Part shown: positions 51,243-64,000 of the stretch, one piece after another | Layout: each line of letters opens with the position of its first letter | Numbering within the stretch: the stretch's first letter is position 1 | Source of the DNA: an uncultured Verrucomicrobiae bacterium | GTDB taxonomy: Bacteria; Verrucomicrobiota; Verrucomicrobiia; Chthoniobacterales; Terrimicrobiaceae | Reading direction: 5' to 3' | Length of the DNA: 64,000 nt | NCBI GenBank assembly: GCA_963706955.1 | Contig: CAVPOC010000014.1 | Coordinates: 1-64,000, forward strand | The notes under the pieces: generated by a model | What the model was told of the DNA's origin: nothing | Databases searched by the model: none | The model's input: the letters and a program-made list of their open reading frames with translations, nothing else | Program-made: the position numbers and the translations under genes

Positions 51243-51665
51243 AAGCACGTTGTCCGACCGACGTGTCATCTTTTCACTAATTGGCGGAATGACCGGATCG
51301 GACAGGTACCTTTTGGGCGAACCGACATTCTGGCGCGAGATGACCTCGCCAACGACGGGGCGAGAGCTGGATGAATACTCATCTTCAGCGCAGCATGCCC
51401 GCGAGTTAGTCACAGCCGATATGATCCGGTCTCAATGCTGCGAGCAAGCCGTTGCGCTTTGGCAGCCGACTTCACCTGCCGTGCTTTTGAGTGACTTTCG
51501 CCATAGCCAATAGAGCGGTGATCATTGGCCGTGAATCGCTTTGAATCCCATCGTGCATTTTTCAGATGCGTTCTTGTCAGTCGGTCGAGAAGGAGACGAT
51601 GTAGACAGACCGAAGACTTGGCTGGACGCGCTCTGGAACGAAAGAGCCACTGACATCGATTCGCT

Positions 51666-58694: not shown

Positions 58695-59191
58695 ATGGGA
58701 ACGAAGTAGCTTTAGTTGCGGGGTCCTTTGACGAAACTAGGCGGGCGACCATCGGAGTTGTGTCGCGCAGAACAGCTCGCAGAATCAGTGAGTGTGAACT
58801 TCCGACATCTGAGACGACGCTTGCCAACGGGCGTGAAAGACCCCGGAGGGTGTTACCGCTCTATCTCTATCTTCATCGCCGTCTGATCCAACTGTGAATG
58901 GCTTCGGCAATGCCGCCATGCAAAGCCGAATGCGGGACATCTGCGCGTCGGGTTTGACTGGGGAACGGCAGGTAGTTGTCATTGGGCATAGGCTTCAACG
59001 CCTCTCATCCCGCACGTTTCTCTCTACTCTCCCGGATTCAGAGAACTCCTCTCTTATAGTGAGATCATAACAGACTAGTATTCGGAACCTCACCCAAATC
59101 CCGAAAACAATCCGAAGGACTTCATCCTATTGAGAAGGTTGTCATTGTCGTAGTCCACGGACATAGAGAGGGGTTCGAATCTCAATCGACG

Positions 59192-59684
59192 GGCGCTAGC
59201 GCGCCTCGCCAACGATAAAGCTGTTGGCTCCTGAGGTAGGATTGATTCGGCTGCGCCTCACCCCTGCGGGGCTAACCTGCCGGTCAGTCTGTCTCGCTGC
59301 GCTCGGCTCGAACCCAAGGCTTCGAATCCCAAACAATTGGCGCTAGCGCGCCTCGCCAACGATAAAGCTGTTGGCTCCTGAGGTAGGATTGATTCGGCTG
59401 CGCCTCACCCCTGCGGGGCTAACCTGCCGGTCAGTCTGTCTCGCTGCGCTCGGCTCGAACCCAAGGCTTCGAATCCCAAACAATTGGCGCTAGCGCGCCT
59501 CGCCAACGATAAAGCTGTTGGCTCCTGAGGTAGGATTGATTCGGCTGCGCCTCACCCCTGCGGGGCTAACCTGCCGGTCAGTCTGTCTCGCTGCGCTCGG
59601 CTCGAACCCAAGGCTTCGAATCCCAAACAATTGGCGCTAGCGCGCCTCGCCAACGATAAAGCTGTTGGCTCCTGAGGTAGGATT
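59192..59684 (-). repeat. tRNA-linked tandem repeat, 147-bp unit, three full copies plus a partial fourth
   Basis: Units start at 59192, 59339, 59486 and 59633; each carries the last 19 nt of tRNA-Asn (AATCCTACCTCAGGAGCCA on the minus strand). Confidence 0.95.
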
Positions 59685-59740
59685 CGAACCTACGACCAAT
59701 CGGTTAACAGCCGACCGCTCTACCACTGAGCTACTCAGGA
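59666..59740 (-). tRNA. tRNA-Asn(GTT)
   Basis: TCCTGAGTAGCTCAGTGGTAGAGCGGTCGGCTGTTAACCGATTGGTCGTAGGTTCGAATCCTACCTCAGGAGCCA: full cloverleaf with encoded CCA. Confidence 0.97.
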
Positions 59741-59756
59741 TTACGGAAGGATCAAG

Positions 59757-59791
59757 TCGGCTAGCAAAAGCGCAAACCGCTACCTTGTCAA
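59757..59791 (-). promoter_or_regulatory. Candidate tRNA-Asn promoter
   Basis: TTGACA at 59791-59786; the region is conserved upstream of both pseudo-tRNA copies (TTGACA 60203-60198, TTAACA 62746-62741); -10 box unclear. Confidence 0.5.
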
Positions 59792-60076
59792 GGAGGTGGC
59801 GCTTGTTTGGCGAGCCACGTCGCCAAGTTCCCTTTAACCCATTCTCGACCCTTTCCAGTTTTCAAGAAACGTTCTCTTCTCATTGCTTCAGCGCGGGAAC
59901 GTGCGCTTCCGAATAAGCAAGCAGCCACGGACCACGCCGCCGCTTGGTATGAAAACTCCGGCGATTATCTGGATCGTTGTGCTCCACGATTCGCCGGCGC
60001 ACGTCTTCGGTTTGCCCAAGTATGTTTCGCCCGTTGGCTCACTGATGATCGCATACGTAAAGAATCGATCGCTCAC
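59788..60076 (-). pseudogene. GIY-YIG nuclease (YhbQ/UPF0213-like), two frameshifts
   Basis: Joined frames: MSDRFFTYAIISEPTGETYxGQTEDVRRRIVEHN..HTKRRRGPWLLAYSE..SRAEAMRRERFLKTGKGREWV. Confidence 0.85.
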
Positions 60077-60080
60077 ACCC

Positions 60081-60151
60081 TCAAACCTACGATTCGCCGC
60101 GGCGAATTAACAGCCGACCGCTCTATTCGCCGCGGCGAAAGCTACTCAGGA
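60081..60151 (-). pseudogene. Pseudo-tRNA-Asn (5' part) with two palindrome substitutions
   Basis: TCCTGAGTAGCT-TTCGCCGCGGCGAA-TAGAGCGGTCGGCTGTTAA-TTCGCCGCGGCGAA-TCGTAGGTTTGA; 3' end missing. Confidence 0.9.
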
Positions 60152-60382
60152 TCCCGGAAGGTGGAGGTCGGCTAGCAACTAGCGCAAACCGCTTTGTTGT
60201 CAAGGGAACCTGCACGCGACTTGCGTCCTGCTTGAGGCAGATTCGCTACGAGCGCGGCGACTACTTACGGGAAGGTTAATACCAAGAGAGATTGCAAATT
60301 CGCAACTTCGCAAAGAGATTCGGGGGACACTCGGAGAGCAGCACCCTGAGTCGATCGGCGCGAACAGGCAGTCGCCTCTGCC

Positions 60383-61471
60383 ATGAATGCACAGACCCCC
60401 ATCGATAAATTACCAAGAGCGAGTTTAATCCTGCGCTTGGCCACGATCGGCATGGTGATCGCGGGAATTGCTGGTTTGTTCGCATACGCGGGCGGCTGGC
60501 TGACAGCGAACAGACTCACGCCAAAGTCAATGATCGACACCTTCGAAAAAGTGAATGGGCCGCATCCCGGGTTTCGGCGCAATCACGCCAAGGGCGTCTG
60601 TGTGAGCGGTTATTTCGAAAGCAATGGGCGAGGCGCTGCGCTGTCCAAAGCTGCTGTCTTTCGCGCCGGTCGTGTGCCGGTGATTGGACGCTTTGCCCTC
60701 GCGGGCGGGCAGCCCTACGCCGCGGATGTTCCACAAACGGTACGCAGCATGGCGCTGCTTTTCAAGCTCCCCGACGGCGAGGAGTGGCGCACGGGAATGA
60801 ACAACATTCCCGTCTTTCCCGTCAAAACCCCTCAGGCATTTCACGATCAGTTGTTGGCCTCGGCGCCGGACCCGGCAACTGGCAGACCGGACCCGGCGAA
60901 AATGAAAGCCTTCGTGGCCAGTTATCCGGAAACCGCAAAGGCAATGCCTTTGATTGGCAATCGTCCGATCTCGTCCGGGTTCGACAACAGCACTTACAAC
61001 AGCTTGAACGCCTTCCGTTTCATCAATACCAGCGGCGCTGTGGTCCCGGTCCGTTGGTCGATGGTGTCTGTTCAGCCGTTCGAGCCAACCAGCACGGCAG
61101 ACCCCGGAAAGACCGGCAAGAATTACCTTTTTGATGCATTGATCGCGAGCATTCACAGCCACCCGCTGCAATGGCGTTTGGTCGTCACGGTGGGCGAACC
61201 GGGGGATCCCACCGATGATGCGACGATTCCCTGGCCGCCGGATCGGCAGCAGGTTGAAGTGGGAACGTTGACGATCGACCACGTCGAGAGCGAGGAGACC
61301 AGTCCCGCGCGCGACATCAACTTCGATCCGTTGATCCTACCCGACGGCATTGCCGGTTCCGACGATCCGCTCCTTAGTGCCCGATCAGCGACCTATTCGC
61401 AGTCGTTCACGCGCCGTGAAGGCGAGCGCAAACAACCCAGCGCGGTCTCGATCCCCGAAACTGAAAAATGA
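60383..61471 (+). CDS. Catalase-related peroxidase (SrpA-like)
   Basis: GFRRNHAKG, GRFALAGG, MNNIPVF, INFDPLILPDGI..SDDPLLSARS..YS; N-terminal TM segment. Confidence 0.9.
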   Translation: MNAQTPIDKLPRASLILRLATIGMVIAGIAGLFAYAGGWLTANRLTPKSMIDTFEKVNGPHPGFRRNHAKGVCVSGYFESNGRGAALSKAAVFRAGRVPVIGRFALAGGQPYAADVPQTVRSMALLFKLPDGEEWRTGMNNIPVFPVKTPQAFHDQLLASAPDPATGRPDPAKMKAFVASYPETAKAMPLIGNRPISSGFDNSTYNSLNAFRFINTSGAVVPVRWSMVSVQPFEPTSTADPGKTGKNYLFDALIASIHSHPLQWRLVVTVGEPGDPTDDATIPWPPDRQQVEVGTLTIDHVESEETSPARDINFDPLILPDGIAGSDDPLLSARSATYSQSFTRREGERKQPSAVSIPETEK

Positions 61472-62037
61472 ATACGCCAAAACCCCGCACGCAATTCGCC
61501 CTCCAGTCGCGCATCCTCCATTGGATGATGGCCGTGCTGCTTCTGGCCATGCTGTTCATCGGAGTGTCGATGGTCGCCTCGTTGGGAGACTACCATACGC
61601 TCGTCGCGATCCATCGTCCACTGGGCATCATGATCCTGATTCTAGCGGCCATACGGCTAGCAAACCGGATATGCACGACGCTGCCCCCATTCCCGCCTAC
61701 CATGTCCCGTCTGGAACGATTCATGGCTTCGTCATCCGAGAAGTTACTTTACGCTTTGATGTTCGCCCTGCCGCTCGTGGGTTGGGGCATGTTGTCGGCG
61801 GGCCACTATCCAATCGTGATGTTCGGGTCGATTCATCTGCCGCCGATTCTTCCGGCTAATCCGATGCTCTACGCGGTCTTGCGCCAGTTGCACACGATCC
61901 TGGCGTATCTGTTGTTCGCGACATTTCTCGCCCATCTCAGCGCGGTGCTGTTCCACACGCTGATCGTTCGTGACCGGCTTCTGGAGCGCATGGCTCTGTG
62001 GCCACTCCGATCACGAAAAAACAAAAGTCAAAGTTGA
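61468..62037 (+). CDS. Cytochrome b561 family protein
   Basis: RILHWMMA, HRPLG, LPLVGW, LHTILAY..AHL..LFH; ATGA overlap with the catalase gene. Confidence 0.9.
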   Translation: MNTPKPRTQFALQSRILHWMMAVLLLAMLFIGVSMVASLGDYHTLVAIHRPLGIMILILAAIRLANRICTTLPPFPPTMSRLERFMASSSEKLLYALMFALPLVGWGMLSAGHYPIVMFGSIHLPPILPANPMLYAVLRQLHTILAYLLFATFLAHLSAVLFHTLIVRDRLLERMALWPLRSRKNKSQS

Positions 62038-62544
62038 TTGCCGAACTTCTGGTTTCCGATGCCCCGAATTGTGCCATTGTCTCTTCCACCGAATCCGGAA
62101 GAAACAAGTGCGAATACCCCGTGCAATACGCCAAGGCTTCGCTTCTTCGATCGCTTTTTGAATTAGACGATCCTCACCGCAGAAACGGCTTTCATAAATG
62201 CTTTTGAGTCGAACTCTCAATTGTCCAGCGCGACGACCAAGCGGTTGCGAGACACGTCGAGGAAATCGGGTCCGGTCGAACTCGTTGTCACCTACTGTTG
62301 CCTTGAATCCGTTTTGCTCCCCTGCAATTCGACCTTGGCATTCAGTGATATTGGTAGCCGACGATCGCCACAAACGTGCCGCACGAGAGCGAGACTGGTC
62401 GGACTCGTCAACTTGGCCGATCGAAGTTACTTAATCACACGATTTTCGGGTTTTCCTGAGCAGCCGTCCAATTTGGAAGGCCGGAACACGAATCTCCGGC
62501 AAAGAACGAACTCAGACCGCTGTGGCTGGCCGCTGCTCAGGCAA

Positions 62545-62622
62545 TGAACTTTTCGATTGCACAAGTCGCTTCGACGCAGAGTTTGCGCCGAAGGGATTCT
62601 CTGCCATGGCGTCAAATGCTCA
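62545..62622 (+). repeat. Duplicate of the corA leader and first codons
   Basis: Similar to 63281-63359 and includes ATGGCGTCAAATGCTCA. Confidence 0.85.
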
Positions 62623-62626
62623 TACC

Positions 62627-62698
62627 TTCGAACCTACGATTCGCCGCGGCGAATTAACAGCCGACCGCTCTGTTCGCCGCGGCGAAAGCTACTCAGGA
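62627..62698 (-). pseudogene. Second pseudo-tRNA-Asn (5' part) with the same two palindrome substitutions
   Basis: Palindromes at 62640-62653 and 62673-62686; ends at GGTTCGAA. Confidence 0.9.
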
Positions 62699-62888
62699 AC
62701 TTGGGATTCCGAGTCGGCTAGCAAAAGCGCAACCGCTTCTTGTTAAGGAAGCGAAGTTGCGCGTGACTCGCGTCTTCTTTTGAACAGATTCGCTACGGCC
62801 GCGCCCCACTTCTTAGGGGAATGTTAACACCGAGATAGATTGTAAATTTGCAGCAGAAGAGTAAGCGTGCGGGCGCTTCAAATCTGCA

Positions 62889-63215
62889 ATGTCCGAGTCT
62901 CTCATCGTCTACGTCTCCCTCGTGCTCTGCGGAATGGCATTGAGCTGGTTCTTGCTTTACCGGTCTATCGTGCGGCGGCTGAGTGTGCGTCATCGGAAGA
63001 AGTATTTGGCCATGCGGACGATCTCGGGAGTTCCAAAAAACAGCATCGATTGGCTGTTTTCTTTTCTGCGGTATCTTTGCTTGGGAGAACACCGTGAGCT
63101 TCGAGATTCAACGATGTCCGGTTTGTGCCTGCTGCTTAAGGGATGCACTCTCGCGATATTTCTTCTTTTCGTGTTCTTGATGTTCAGTCCGATGTTTCTG
63201 CCAGGCGGCCACTAG
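62889..63215 (+). CDS. Small two-TM membrane protein, UspB-like
   Basis: TM-RRL..RH..Y-LRYL..EHR...D....C-TM layout, 108 aa. Confidence 0.5.
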   Translation: MSESLIVYVSLVLCGMALSWFLLYRSIVRRLSVRHRKKYLAMRTISGVPKNSIDWLFSFLRYLCLGEHRELRDSTMSGLCLLLKGCTLAIFLLFVFLMFSPMFLPGGH

Positions 63216-63342
63216 ACCTATCAACTCCCCGCTAACTTCAAACAGATCCTGCGCAGCCGAGTTGGCCAATGGCCACTCAGTGAACTTTTCGATTGCATAA
63301 GCCACTTCGACGGCAGAGTTTGCCCCCAAAGGATTCTCTGCC

Positions 63343-64000
63343 ATGGCGTCAAATGCTCACAGCGCGACCGAGGAAGCACCGAGCCTAGAGGGTCGGGCGC
63401 CGGAGATTGTTTCGGTCGAGGAGAATAATGCGAGCGTTCGGAGCTTTTTCCGCTTGGTCGGCGGCCATCTGATCCCCTGCGAGCCGAACGCGGCCGAGAT
63501 CATCGCCTACACGTCGCCAACCATGGACGACGAGGCTGAATTGCAGGAGCAATACAAGATCGATTACCACACACTTCAGTCCTCTCTCGATCCGGACGAA
63601 CTCTCGCGCCTGGAGATCGAGCACGGTCATATATCCATCATTTTCAAGCGGCCGAAGAGTTTCTGTGCCGGCGACAATTTCCTGATGAAGCTGACCTCGA
63701 CCGGCGTCTTTGTTTACGAAAACTATTTGGTCATCGTGATGGCAGACGACTCGCCCATCTTCGAAGGTCGAGTTCCCTTTGGCGTGCATTCAATCCATGA
63801 TGTCATCCTGCGCCTGCTCTATCAGGCCACAATGCATTTCGAAGGACATCTCAAGGCGATCAACATGCTGGCGGACTCTCTCGAGCGGCGGATCAATACC
63901 TCACTCGAGAATAAATATCTCCTCAACATGTTCTCGCTCGAGAAGAGCCTCGTGTTTATTCTGAACTCCATCAGCTCGAACGGTTCGCTGCTGGAAAGGA
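63343..64000 (+). CDS. corA: CorA family magnesium transporter (runs off the window)
   Basis: Open frame from ATG 63343: IDYHTLQSSLDPDELSRLEIE..IIFKRP..HLKAIN..LE..NKYLLNMFSLEKSLVF. Confidence 0.8.
   Translation, partial: MASNAHSATEEAPSLEGRAPEIVSVEENNASVRSFFRLVGGHLIPCEPNAAEIIAYTSPTMDDEAELQEQYKIDYHTLQSSLDPDELSRLEIEHGHISIIFKRPKSFCAGDNFLMKLTSTGVFVYENYLVIVMADDSPIFEGRVPFGVHSIHDVILRLLYQATMHFEGHLKAINMLADSLERRINTSLENKYLLNMFSLEKSLVFILNSISSNGSLLER

Follow-up and report, generated by a model that had tools for sequence, protein, structure and literature searches.

Four copies of one perfect palindrome lie inside partial copies of a tRNA-Asn gene in a 64,000-nucleotide stretch of DNA from an uncultured Verrucomicrobiae bacterium of the family Terrimicrobiaceae (positions 1 to 64,000 of contig CAVPOC010000014.1, assembly GCA_963706955.1), close to a small gene of the GIY-YIG nuclease family. 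The whole stretch is referred to here as the window and corresponds to C14:1-64000 of a 4.16-Mb genome that is 92.5% complete. The palindromes are probably copies of a single conserved hairpin module belonging to a small GIY-YIG cassette that nests in tRNA genes, the hairpin being a putative single-stranded DNA (ssDNA) site acting in cis, a reading drawn by analogy with a named group of nucleases. The cassette has a three-part architecture (nuclease gene, hairpin and partial tRNA copy) that recurs across phyla, the hairpin stem is conserved, and the type of hairpin goes with the nuclease clade. The same analogy suggests that the hairpin forms on ssDNA and is the site bound and cut by the nuclease.

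Palindromes, pseudo-tRNAs and a broken nuclease gene

The 14-nucleotide (nt) perfect palindrome TTCGCCGCGGCGAA has four exact matches in the window, at 60093-60106, 60126-60139, 62640-62653 and 62673-62686, precisely where the initial annotation had placed them, and none in any of 100 dinucleotide-preserving shuffles. They are found in two pseudo-tRNAs on the minus strand, copies A and B, which align to the true tRNA-Asn from nt 1 to about nt 57-59. In both copies the D-loop letters CAGTGG are replaced by the palindrome (hairpin P1), as is CCGATTGG, which comprises the 3' strand of the anticodon stem and the start of the variable region (hairpin P2). Alignment of copies A and B to the true tRNA-Asn reveals no target duplication around the palindromes and bears out the initial description of both segments as replaced rather than interrupted. 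Together with a neighbouring A and T, P2 forms a perfect palindrome of 16 nt (60092-60107 in copy A), so that the length of 14 bp first given holds for P1 and has to be extended for P2.

Copies A and B share a 239-bp block of 80% identity (blastn) including the tRNA promoter and about 150 bp upstream of it, and judged from this shared sequence they are paralogues. For this reason the four palindromes represent two inherited hairpin positions and not four independent events; the two overwritten tRNA copies of the initial annotation are both real, their independence is not. The palindromes had also been described as identical in spite of diverged flanks, and this stands: the copies agree at 28 of 28 hairpin letters and 41 of 43 tRNA-derived letters versus 117 of 160 positions of the upstream flank, and the chance of 28 identical letters at 73% identity is about 1.6e-4. 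An intergenic gap some 8.6 kb away from copy A contains a third promoter and pseudo-tRNA, decayed and with remnants of both hairpins (copy C, plus strand, about 51440-51545; 76% in blastn over 71 bp), which corrects the earlier impression that the motif occurs nowhere else in the window.

Genome-wide, TTCGCCGCGGCGAA has five exact sites, one of them outside the window (C9:104675), and seven sites with one mismatch. Such small numbers in 4.16 Mb, the lack of target duplication and the enrichment of hairpins beside the nuclease (see below) do not describe a family of repetitive extragenic palindromes (REP) or miniature inverted-repeat transposable elements (MITE); a known REP family unlinked to nucleases, named initially as the finding that would overturn the proposal, is not what the five exact copies represent. 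The sole other exact 14-mer (C9:104675-104688) has no tRNA-like flanks in the 300 bp read around it, and ARAGORN reports an odd tRNA-like gene at 102403-102484 of the same contig, about 2.2 kb away.

The intact tRNA-Asn(GTT) gene of the window (Rfam tRNA, 74.5 bits) is the only tRNA-Asn gene that ARAGORN found in the genome. The order on the minus strand is promoter copy, pseudo-tRNA A with P1 and P2, GIY-YIG reading frame, true promoter, true tRNA-Asn and a series of 147-bp repeats (Table 1). From its match to the consensus, the TTGACA in the leader of the true tRNA is presumably the -35 box of the promoter, and the stop codon of the GIY-YIG frame is the TGA within this box. The nuclease gene of the window is broken, being frameshifted twice, and the palindromes are intact. 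With an intact relative of 95 amino acids (aa) as query, tblastn recovers the gene in three pieces (61%, 63% and 59% identity), and its PF01541 score is 20.2 bits versus 53.7–63.5 bits in intact relatives; the adjacent GIY-YIG gene initially reported is thus present, in three reading frames. The genome yielded no second intact copy of this nuclease. A different small GIY-YIG gene, itself intact, lies directly behind a tRNA-Gly(CCC) gene at C3:537200-537780, flanked by direct repeats of about 50 bp with other GC-rich hairpins and followed by a partial second gene copy.

Table 1. Features of the window discussed in the text, with the evidence for each.
Feature	Position	Strand	Evidence
Pseudo-tRNA-Asn copy A, leader of the GIY-YIG gene	60081..60151	-	alignment to true tRNA
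Hairpin P1, copy A, D-loop position	60126..60139	.	sequence, shuffle test
Hairpin P2, copy A, 16-nt palindrome at 3' anticodon-stem strand	60092..60107	.	sequence, shuffle test, order-wide conservation
Duplicated tRNA promoter (TTGACA 60203-60198) and upstream block, copy A	60152..60304	-	homology to copy B and true promoter
Pseudo-tRNA-Asn copy B, without nuclease gene behind	62627..62698	-	alignment; tblastn
Hairpin P1, copy B	62673..62686	.	sequence, shuffle test
Hairpin P2, copy B, 16-nt palindrome	62639..62654	.	sequence, shuffle test
Promoter-like and upstream block, copy B	62699..62852	-	80% identity to copy A over 239 bp
Copy C, decayed pseudo-tRNA	51440..51545	+	blastn, sequence, alignment
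Small single-domain GIY-YIG gene, ~95 codons, two frameshifts	59788..60076	-	tblastn, Pfam
Promoter-like leader of true tRNA, TTGACA 59791-59786	59741..59791	-	sequence; same layout in relatives
tRNA-Asn(GTT)	59666..59740	-	ARAGORN, Rfam
Tandem 147-bp repeats	59171..59665	-	blastn self-matches; Rfam RtT
Copy of CorA-like gene 5' end, 64 bp	62560..62622	+	89% identity to 63296-63359

The locus is also found in other sequence data, positions 59600-60400 being present in 21 listed runs from 12 studies, mostly soil metagenomes. Three public runs from separate studies (X1, X2 and X3, one of which may be the assembly's own source) hold contigs with 0 other letters over 59695-60113, 59676-60113 and 59676-60146, respectively, the last spanning both palindromes of copy A, and record 15 of X2 (62642-63064; one other letter, one gap) contains one copy B palindrome minus its first two bases and the other whole. 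Further contigs cover copy B. Since these contigs match in separate runs, neither the palindromes nor the frameshifts in the nuclease sequence come from errors in this assembly. A variant in X4 has one extra base behind 60019 (depth 5.9 of 14) and a frame open across the first break, which indicates that intact and broken alleles coexist in nature. In X1 a candidate joint connects 59742 to 62627, one of its sides being 29 letters long and thus under the reliability mark. The RNA runs X15-X20 contain no more than 0.06-0.17 of the sampled words.

No GIY-YIG remnant was detected by tblastn behind copy B, which adjoins the copy of the start of the CorA-like gene; this repeat may mark where the ends of an old tandem duplication met, an event by which copy B would have been created or moved. 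The same direct repeat (89%) brackets copy B plus a 108-codon open reading frame (ORF; 62889-63215), and a transcript from the promoter copy of copy B would be antisense to the CorA-start copy. In one relative (G009, locus L005) the same small ORF and upstream block stand directly beside a truncated GIY-YIG gene and tRNA-Asn, which suggests that this arrangement is the older one. Between copies A and B, within the putative duplicated segment, two further genes occupy 60383-62037, one catalase-related (PF00199) and one for cytochrome b561 (PF01292). Directly 3' of the true tRNA-Asn there are about 3.3 tandem repeats of 147 bp, each terminating in a copy of tRNA nt 58-76, and similar repeats stand behind tRNA-Asn in five relatives (G001, G018, G009, G005, G002). 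The 5' pseudo-copies end where the 3' repeat copies begin, at the same T-loop place around TTCGAA.

Recurrence of the cassette in the host order and across phyla

Relatives were sampled as 61 genomes of the same genus and order, and order-wide pattern scans covered 401 genomes; these are samples of their groups, many of them incomplete, and kin are not independent. Within the genus a pseudo-tRNA with identical P1 and P2 is located about 400 bp upstream of tRNA-Asn in G001, G004 and G018, P2 occurs alone in G012, and G005 and G014 have decayed forms. The tRNA-Asn genes of G011 and G002 are without a cassette, so that empty sites occur among close relatives of the filled ones (G001, G004, G018, G012). 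In the occupied genomes of the genus the ORF is intact (95-96 aa), begins about 10 nt past the pseudo-tRNA, and its stop lies in the true tRNA's -35 box. Partial extra units in G004, G012 and G014 represent tandem stacking, and the left end of the entire insert in G014 is the hairpin itself; across the sample, tandem units were seen in G004, G014, G150, G307 and G317.

Order-wide, the pattern CTGTTAA followed by TYCGCC-N2-3-GGCGRA has 22 sites in 17 of 401 genomes belonging to five families, versus 0 for the reversed control. With the insert left free (CTGTTAA-N15-21-RTAGGTTCRA), T[CT]CGCC-loop-GGCG[AG]A is present at all 18 of the 18 sites, which come from 14 of 401 genomes (control, 4 matches). 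The stem is TCCGCC/GGCGGA except in the host genus, which has TTCGCC/GGCGAA, a compensated C:G to T:A change, in both hairpins, and the loops vary (GC, TG, TCA, TGA, GGC, GAT, TTA, TCG). The cassette occurs in two layouts. That of the window consists of a promoter and tRNA 5' part with the hairpin, an ORF or short spacer, and the true tRNA; the second consists of the true tRNA, an ORF often ending in anticodon-loop letters, the hairpin and tRNA nt 46-76. Both are found in G283, whereas G307 and G317 have ORF-less units. Two-hairpin copies (D-loop and anticodon side) are found as well in families f11 (G060, G083) and f7 (G150), decayed in the latter.

The intact relatives of the nuclease have 83-96 aa. 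Each of three examined with Pfam (L004, L020 and L028) has a PF01541 match of 53.7-63.5 bits, which is the only match in L028 and is joined in L004 and L020 by a weaker, overlapping T5orf172 match (17.9 and 26.8 bits). The GIY-YIG domain stands alone, without the separate DNA-binding domain expected of Seg-type homing endonucleases. Invariant alignment columns include Y7, Y18, R28, H32 and E68, which we take to be the catalytic set of the GIY-YIG superfamily.

Searching species-representative genomes with eight aligned proteins of this kind gave 307 relatives, and the cross-phylum counts refer to the best 80 loci of these 307. They belong to at least 16 phyla, the closest being from Verrucomicrobiae, Terrimicrobiaceae and Chthoniobacterales. 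An intact tRNA-Asn lies no more than 400 bp from the ORF at 46 of the 80 loci and some tRNA at 57, the nearest tRNA being on the strand of the ORF in 56 of these 57. At 60 of 80 loci a perfect hairpin, rich in GC and with T[CT]C[CG] as its foot, occurs within the same distance, and several loci have one on both sides of the nuclease gene. Near the ORFs (59.1 kb), 109 of 211 GC-rich hairpins have such a foot, versus 11 of 118 farther off (106.7 kb). The initial annotation had called for a genome-wide count and a test of enrichment near GIY-YIG genes, and had suggested a selected site linked to the adjacent one; this suggestion is supported, as the nuclease family is accompanied across phyla by the hairpin, which stays conserved next to diverging flanks.

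Stem types among the related loci include TCCGCC, TTCGCC, TCCCGN and TCCGTN. Among 107 distinct hairpin sites, 26 follow TGTTAA and 26 precede TTAACC, which places them on either side of the TTAA in the Asn anticodon loop. One array involves tRNA-Pro, with the hairpin in place of the entire anticodon arm: at this locus of an Omnitrophota genome (L060:1171-1773) the GIY-YIG gene and a tRNA-Pro(CGG) gene are followed by four tandem pseudo-tRNAs of about 68-71 bp in which the arm is a TCCGCC hairpin with differing loops.

Hairpin type tracks the nuclease clade and not the host phylum. On a tree of 75 of the 80 proteins (L066, L098, L105, L108 and L110 were omitted for length), built on 94 alignment columns with many forks open and with a hairpin label on 59 rows, hairpin type changes 13 times versus a shuffled mean of 28.5, and none of 200 shuffles is as low. 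All 13 labelled rows of the TCCCGN clade have this type; they come from five phyla, or eight with unlabelled rows. The nucleases of the host genus group with rows from Nitrospirota, Brocadiaceae, Armatimonadota and Methylomirabilota, where 8 of 10 labelled rows are TTCGCC, and not with other Verrucomicrobiota (TCCGCC). With hairpin and gene no more than 0.4 kb apart, this clustering shows that they have travelled jointly across phyla.

A putative ssDNA site and its alternatives

The cassette would comprise a single-domain GIY-YIG gene of 84-96 residues, a hairpin, and a partial copy of a tRNA with the hairpin in place of one arm or a portion of it, the hairpin itself consisting of the foot T[CT]C...G[AG]A, a GC-rich stem and a free loop. 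By analogy with the Ssn nucleases, this hairpin on ssDNA would be the site recognized and cleaved by the nuclease, and its extrusion may be favoured in tRNA genes, which are heavily transcribed and whose arms already form hairpins. Breaks beside the hairpin would fall at the edge of tRNA-derived homology, and homologous recombination on this homology could generate partial tRNA duplications, tandem arrays and ORF-less units; the same repair could carry the cassette to other tRNA-Asn genes, with one working tRNA left. A circle released by recombination between repeats might re-enter any tRNA-Asn gene via a single crossover, which would reproduce both layouts. In the window the nuclease gene is dead and the leader with its hairpins has been copied at least twice more, the four perfect palindromes being, on this reading, relics or still-selected parts of the cassette.

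Several observations weigh against this reading. The published SRM motif of the Ssn system has 0 matches on either strand of the window, and the contexts of P1, P2 and the majority type all fail to fit it. The nearest solved relatives of the nuclease are the UPF0213 proteins EF2693 and BH0048 (E 1.2e-10 and 5.3e-07), followed by SLX1, and the only other small GIY-YIG gene of the genome, that behind tRNA-Gly on C3, is 30% identical and has different hairpins. The linkage of hairpin and nuclease within 0.4 kb means that the clustering on the tree follows shared descent, so that recognition is unproven by it. As the nuclease is frameshifted and four hairpins are perfect, a recent death, gene conversion among the copies or a nuclease-independent function is required. 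Finally, how a naive tRNA gene is entered is not accounted for simply by a nuclease that cuts nothing but its own hairpin.

It is unlikely that the hairpins act instead in RNA, by shaping the leader or 3' end of the nuclease mRNA and thereby its stability, its processing from the tRNA transcript or its translation. They are always on the transcribed strand, in the orientation of tRNA and ORF (56 of 57), and lie in the 5' leader, as in the window, or directly past the stop codon. For the host genus this idea takes a specific form, in which P1 would pair with P2 to form a 15-bp stem enclosing the old anticodon loop; predicted folds do pair P1 with P2 (-39.8 and -37.1 kcal/mol, z -3.7 and -3.2), this pairing is the predicted minimum fold in both RNA and DNA, and a G:U intermediate would ease the C:G to T:A switch. 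A purely structural RNA should, however, covary freely, and the stem is near-invariant across families and phyla at a nuclease identity of 41-47%. Many loci have a single hairpin, the loops of the two hairpins of G083 differ, ORF-less arrays retain the hairpin, and the analogue SsnA does not bind RNA in the published account (PMC11893778). P1:P2 pairing was rejected as a general conserved feature, since G012, like most other loci, has just one hairpin and the G083 loops are unlike.

A role as disabling heterologies is quite improbable: the hairpins would block folding of the spare tRNA or its binding by enzymes, and a crossover 3' of the hairpin would break an essential tRNA, protecting the cassette from deletion. 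Consistent with this, all placements seen cost the tRNA copy its D-loop or else its anticodon arm, in full or in one strand, the longest uninterrupted homology to the true tRNA in the presence of P1 and P2 is 19 nt, and a single tRNA-Asn gene was found in the genome. Any sequence would nevertheless do for this purpose, which leaves the same stem across phyla unexplained, and in the downstream layout a deletion through recombination inside nt 46-76 makes the tRNA whole again, so that no protection comes from the hairpin. It is very unlikely that the palindromes serve a dimeric protein as operators or restriction-like sites on double-stranded DNA, even though they are perfect and the centres of two identical ones are 33 bp apart. 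Known GIY-YIG restriction enzymes have the core, CCGCGG, as their site. Relatives vary at the centre (0 to 3, up to 5 nt), which shifts the spacing of the half-sites, and most variants lack CCGCGG; this motif was rejected as a restriction-type core because the centre varies. That the palindromes arose in assembly, or belong to some generic palindromic repeat spread over the genome and found here by chance, is scarcely credible: short-read contigs do break at the palindromes, but the sequence is identical (0 other letters) in contigs from separate studies, the genome has only five exact copies, and the G060 variant occurs only at the tRNA-Asn copy, plus one one-mismatch site elsewhere.

Returning to the cassette with a hairpin as putative ssDNA site, the same hairpin stands at several different positions of the tRNA copies across lineages, so that some placement process is needed. 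The initial annotation had also proposed a sequence-writing or templated-repair process, which may or may not be at work here. Conceivably, if doubtfully, the cassette is a new ssDNA mobile element with a GIY-YIG hydrolase as its engine instead of an HUH transposase, the hairpin being its end and tRNA arms its points of entry. For tRNA-Asn, entry might tentatively be placed at either side of the TTAA in the palindromic anticodon-loop GTTAAC, the cassette carrying the missing part of the tRNA and thereby keeping one gene whole. Solo hairpins, such as P1 in the D-loop, could then be products of the same placement reaction writing hairpins into tRNA arms, a speculation held with equal reserve.

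If the hairpin is the ssDNA site of the nuclease, a selfish module of about 0.4 kb would be widespread inside essential tRNA genes, which it leaves unbroken, in at least 16 phyla. Ssn-type nucleases would gain a natural role in genomes other than those of Neisseria, there would be a source for the partial tRNA copies and tRNA-linked repeats that have long lacked an explanation, and many natural pairs of nuclease and hairpin with differing specificity would be at hand. Annotation at present mislabels or ignores arm-swapped pseudo-tRNAs as well as short nuclease ORFs next to tRNAs. The window contributes the verrucomicrobial branch with its unbiased order-wide test (18 of 18), a doubly substituted leader that is identical in paralogues otherwise 27% diverged, a dead nuclease allele plus a live-frame variant in nature, and the cross-phylum coupling of hairpin type with nuclease clade.

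Comparison with known systems

The literature searched yielded no paper on a GIY-YIG gene with a hairpin inside partial tRNA copies, and none for GIY-YIG combined with YhbQ. The tyrT operon of Escherichia coli has tRNA-linked repeats, the RtT RNA (Rfam RF00391). The 147-bp repeats of the window resemble such tRNA-linked repeats in layout, as tandem repeats behind a tRNA gene that each end in a copy of the tRNA 3' end, and may be tied to the cassette. They differ in that they score 42.6 bits three times, below the gathering score of 45, and in comprising tRNA 3' ends with different hairpins and no nuclease gene.

Transposons of the IS200/IS605 group share with the cassette their tiny size, hairpin ends recognized on ssDNA and a short fixed sequence beside the hairpin, features also discussed in a report on Ssn nucleases (PMC11893778). 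They depend, in contrast, on an HUH tyrosine transposase, whose intermediates are covalent; a GIY-YIG hydrolase is unable to rejoin DNA unaided. Nor do transposons of this group carry a healing copy of a tRNA.

SegB is larger than the cassette nuclease and has a DNA-binding part. In phages T4 and T6 it is a free-standing GIY-YIG homing endonuclease located in a tRNA gene cluster (PMC2330249), and breaks made by SegB followed by recombination on short homology lead to tandem tRNA-segB amplification (PMC13096335). The presence of a GIY-YIG gene among tRNA genes is thus shared, and the amplification described matches the tandem units of G004, G014, G150, G307 and G317. SegB differs in being a phage protein that cuts duplex tRNA-containing DNA, and is not known to have a conserved hairpin module or arm-substituted tRNA copies.

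The initial annotation knew of no named system of this kind, a statement that needs amending, as the Ssn nucleases with their NTS/SRM hairpins are, by analogy, a close named counterpart of the cassette. SsnA of Neisseria meningitidis is a single-domain GIY-YIG protein of 94 aa whose own gene is flanked by NTS/SRM hairpin repeats; as reported, it binds the hairpin in ssDNA only, cuts just upstream of it and is inactive on duplex DNA and RNA, a conserved flank orients its cutting, and each Ssn homologue cuts its own hairpin (Chenal et al., 2025, PMC11893778). The main text of that paper contains no mention of tRNA, and the tRNA matches listed from the searched part of its supplement are gene descriptions. 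The cassette differs in that its hairpin lies inside partial tRNA copies beside an intact tRNA gene and in the small number of hairpins per genome, five exact ones here as against the hundreds of NTS reported. Because the SRM motif is unmatched, the cassette is said to work like Ssn and membership in the Ssn group is not claimed. The likeness to the published system extends to a single-domain GIY-YIG protein of about 90-95 residues, a gene flanked by a GC-rich hairpin with free loop and oriented flank, many nuclease/hairpin pairs of differing specificities, and an NTS stem (TTCCCGCG...) that resembles the TCCCGN and TTCGCC feet of the cassette.

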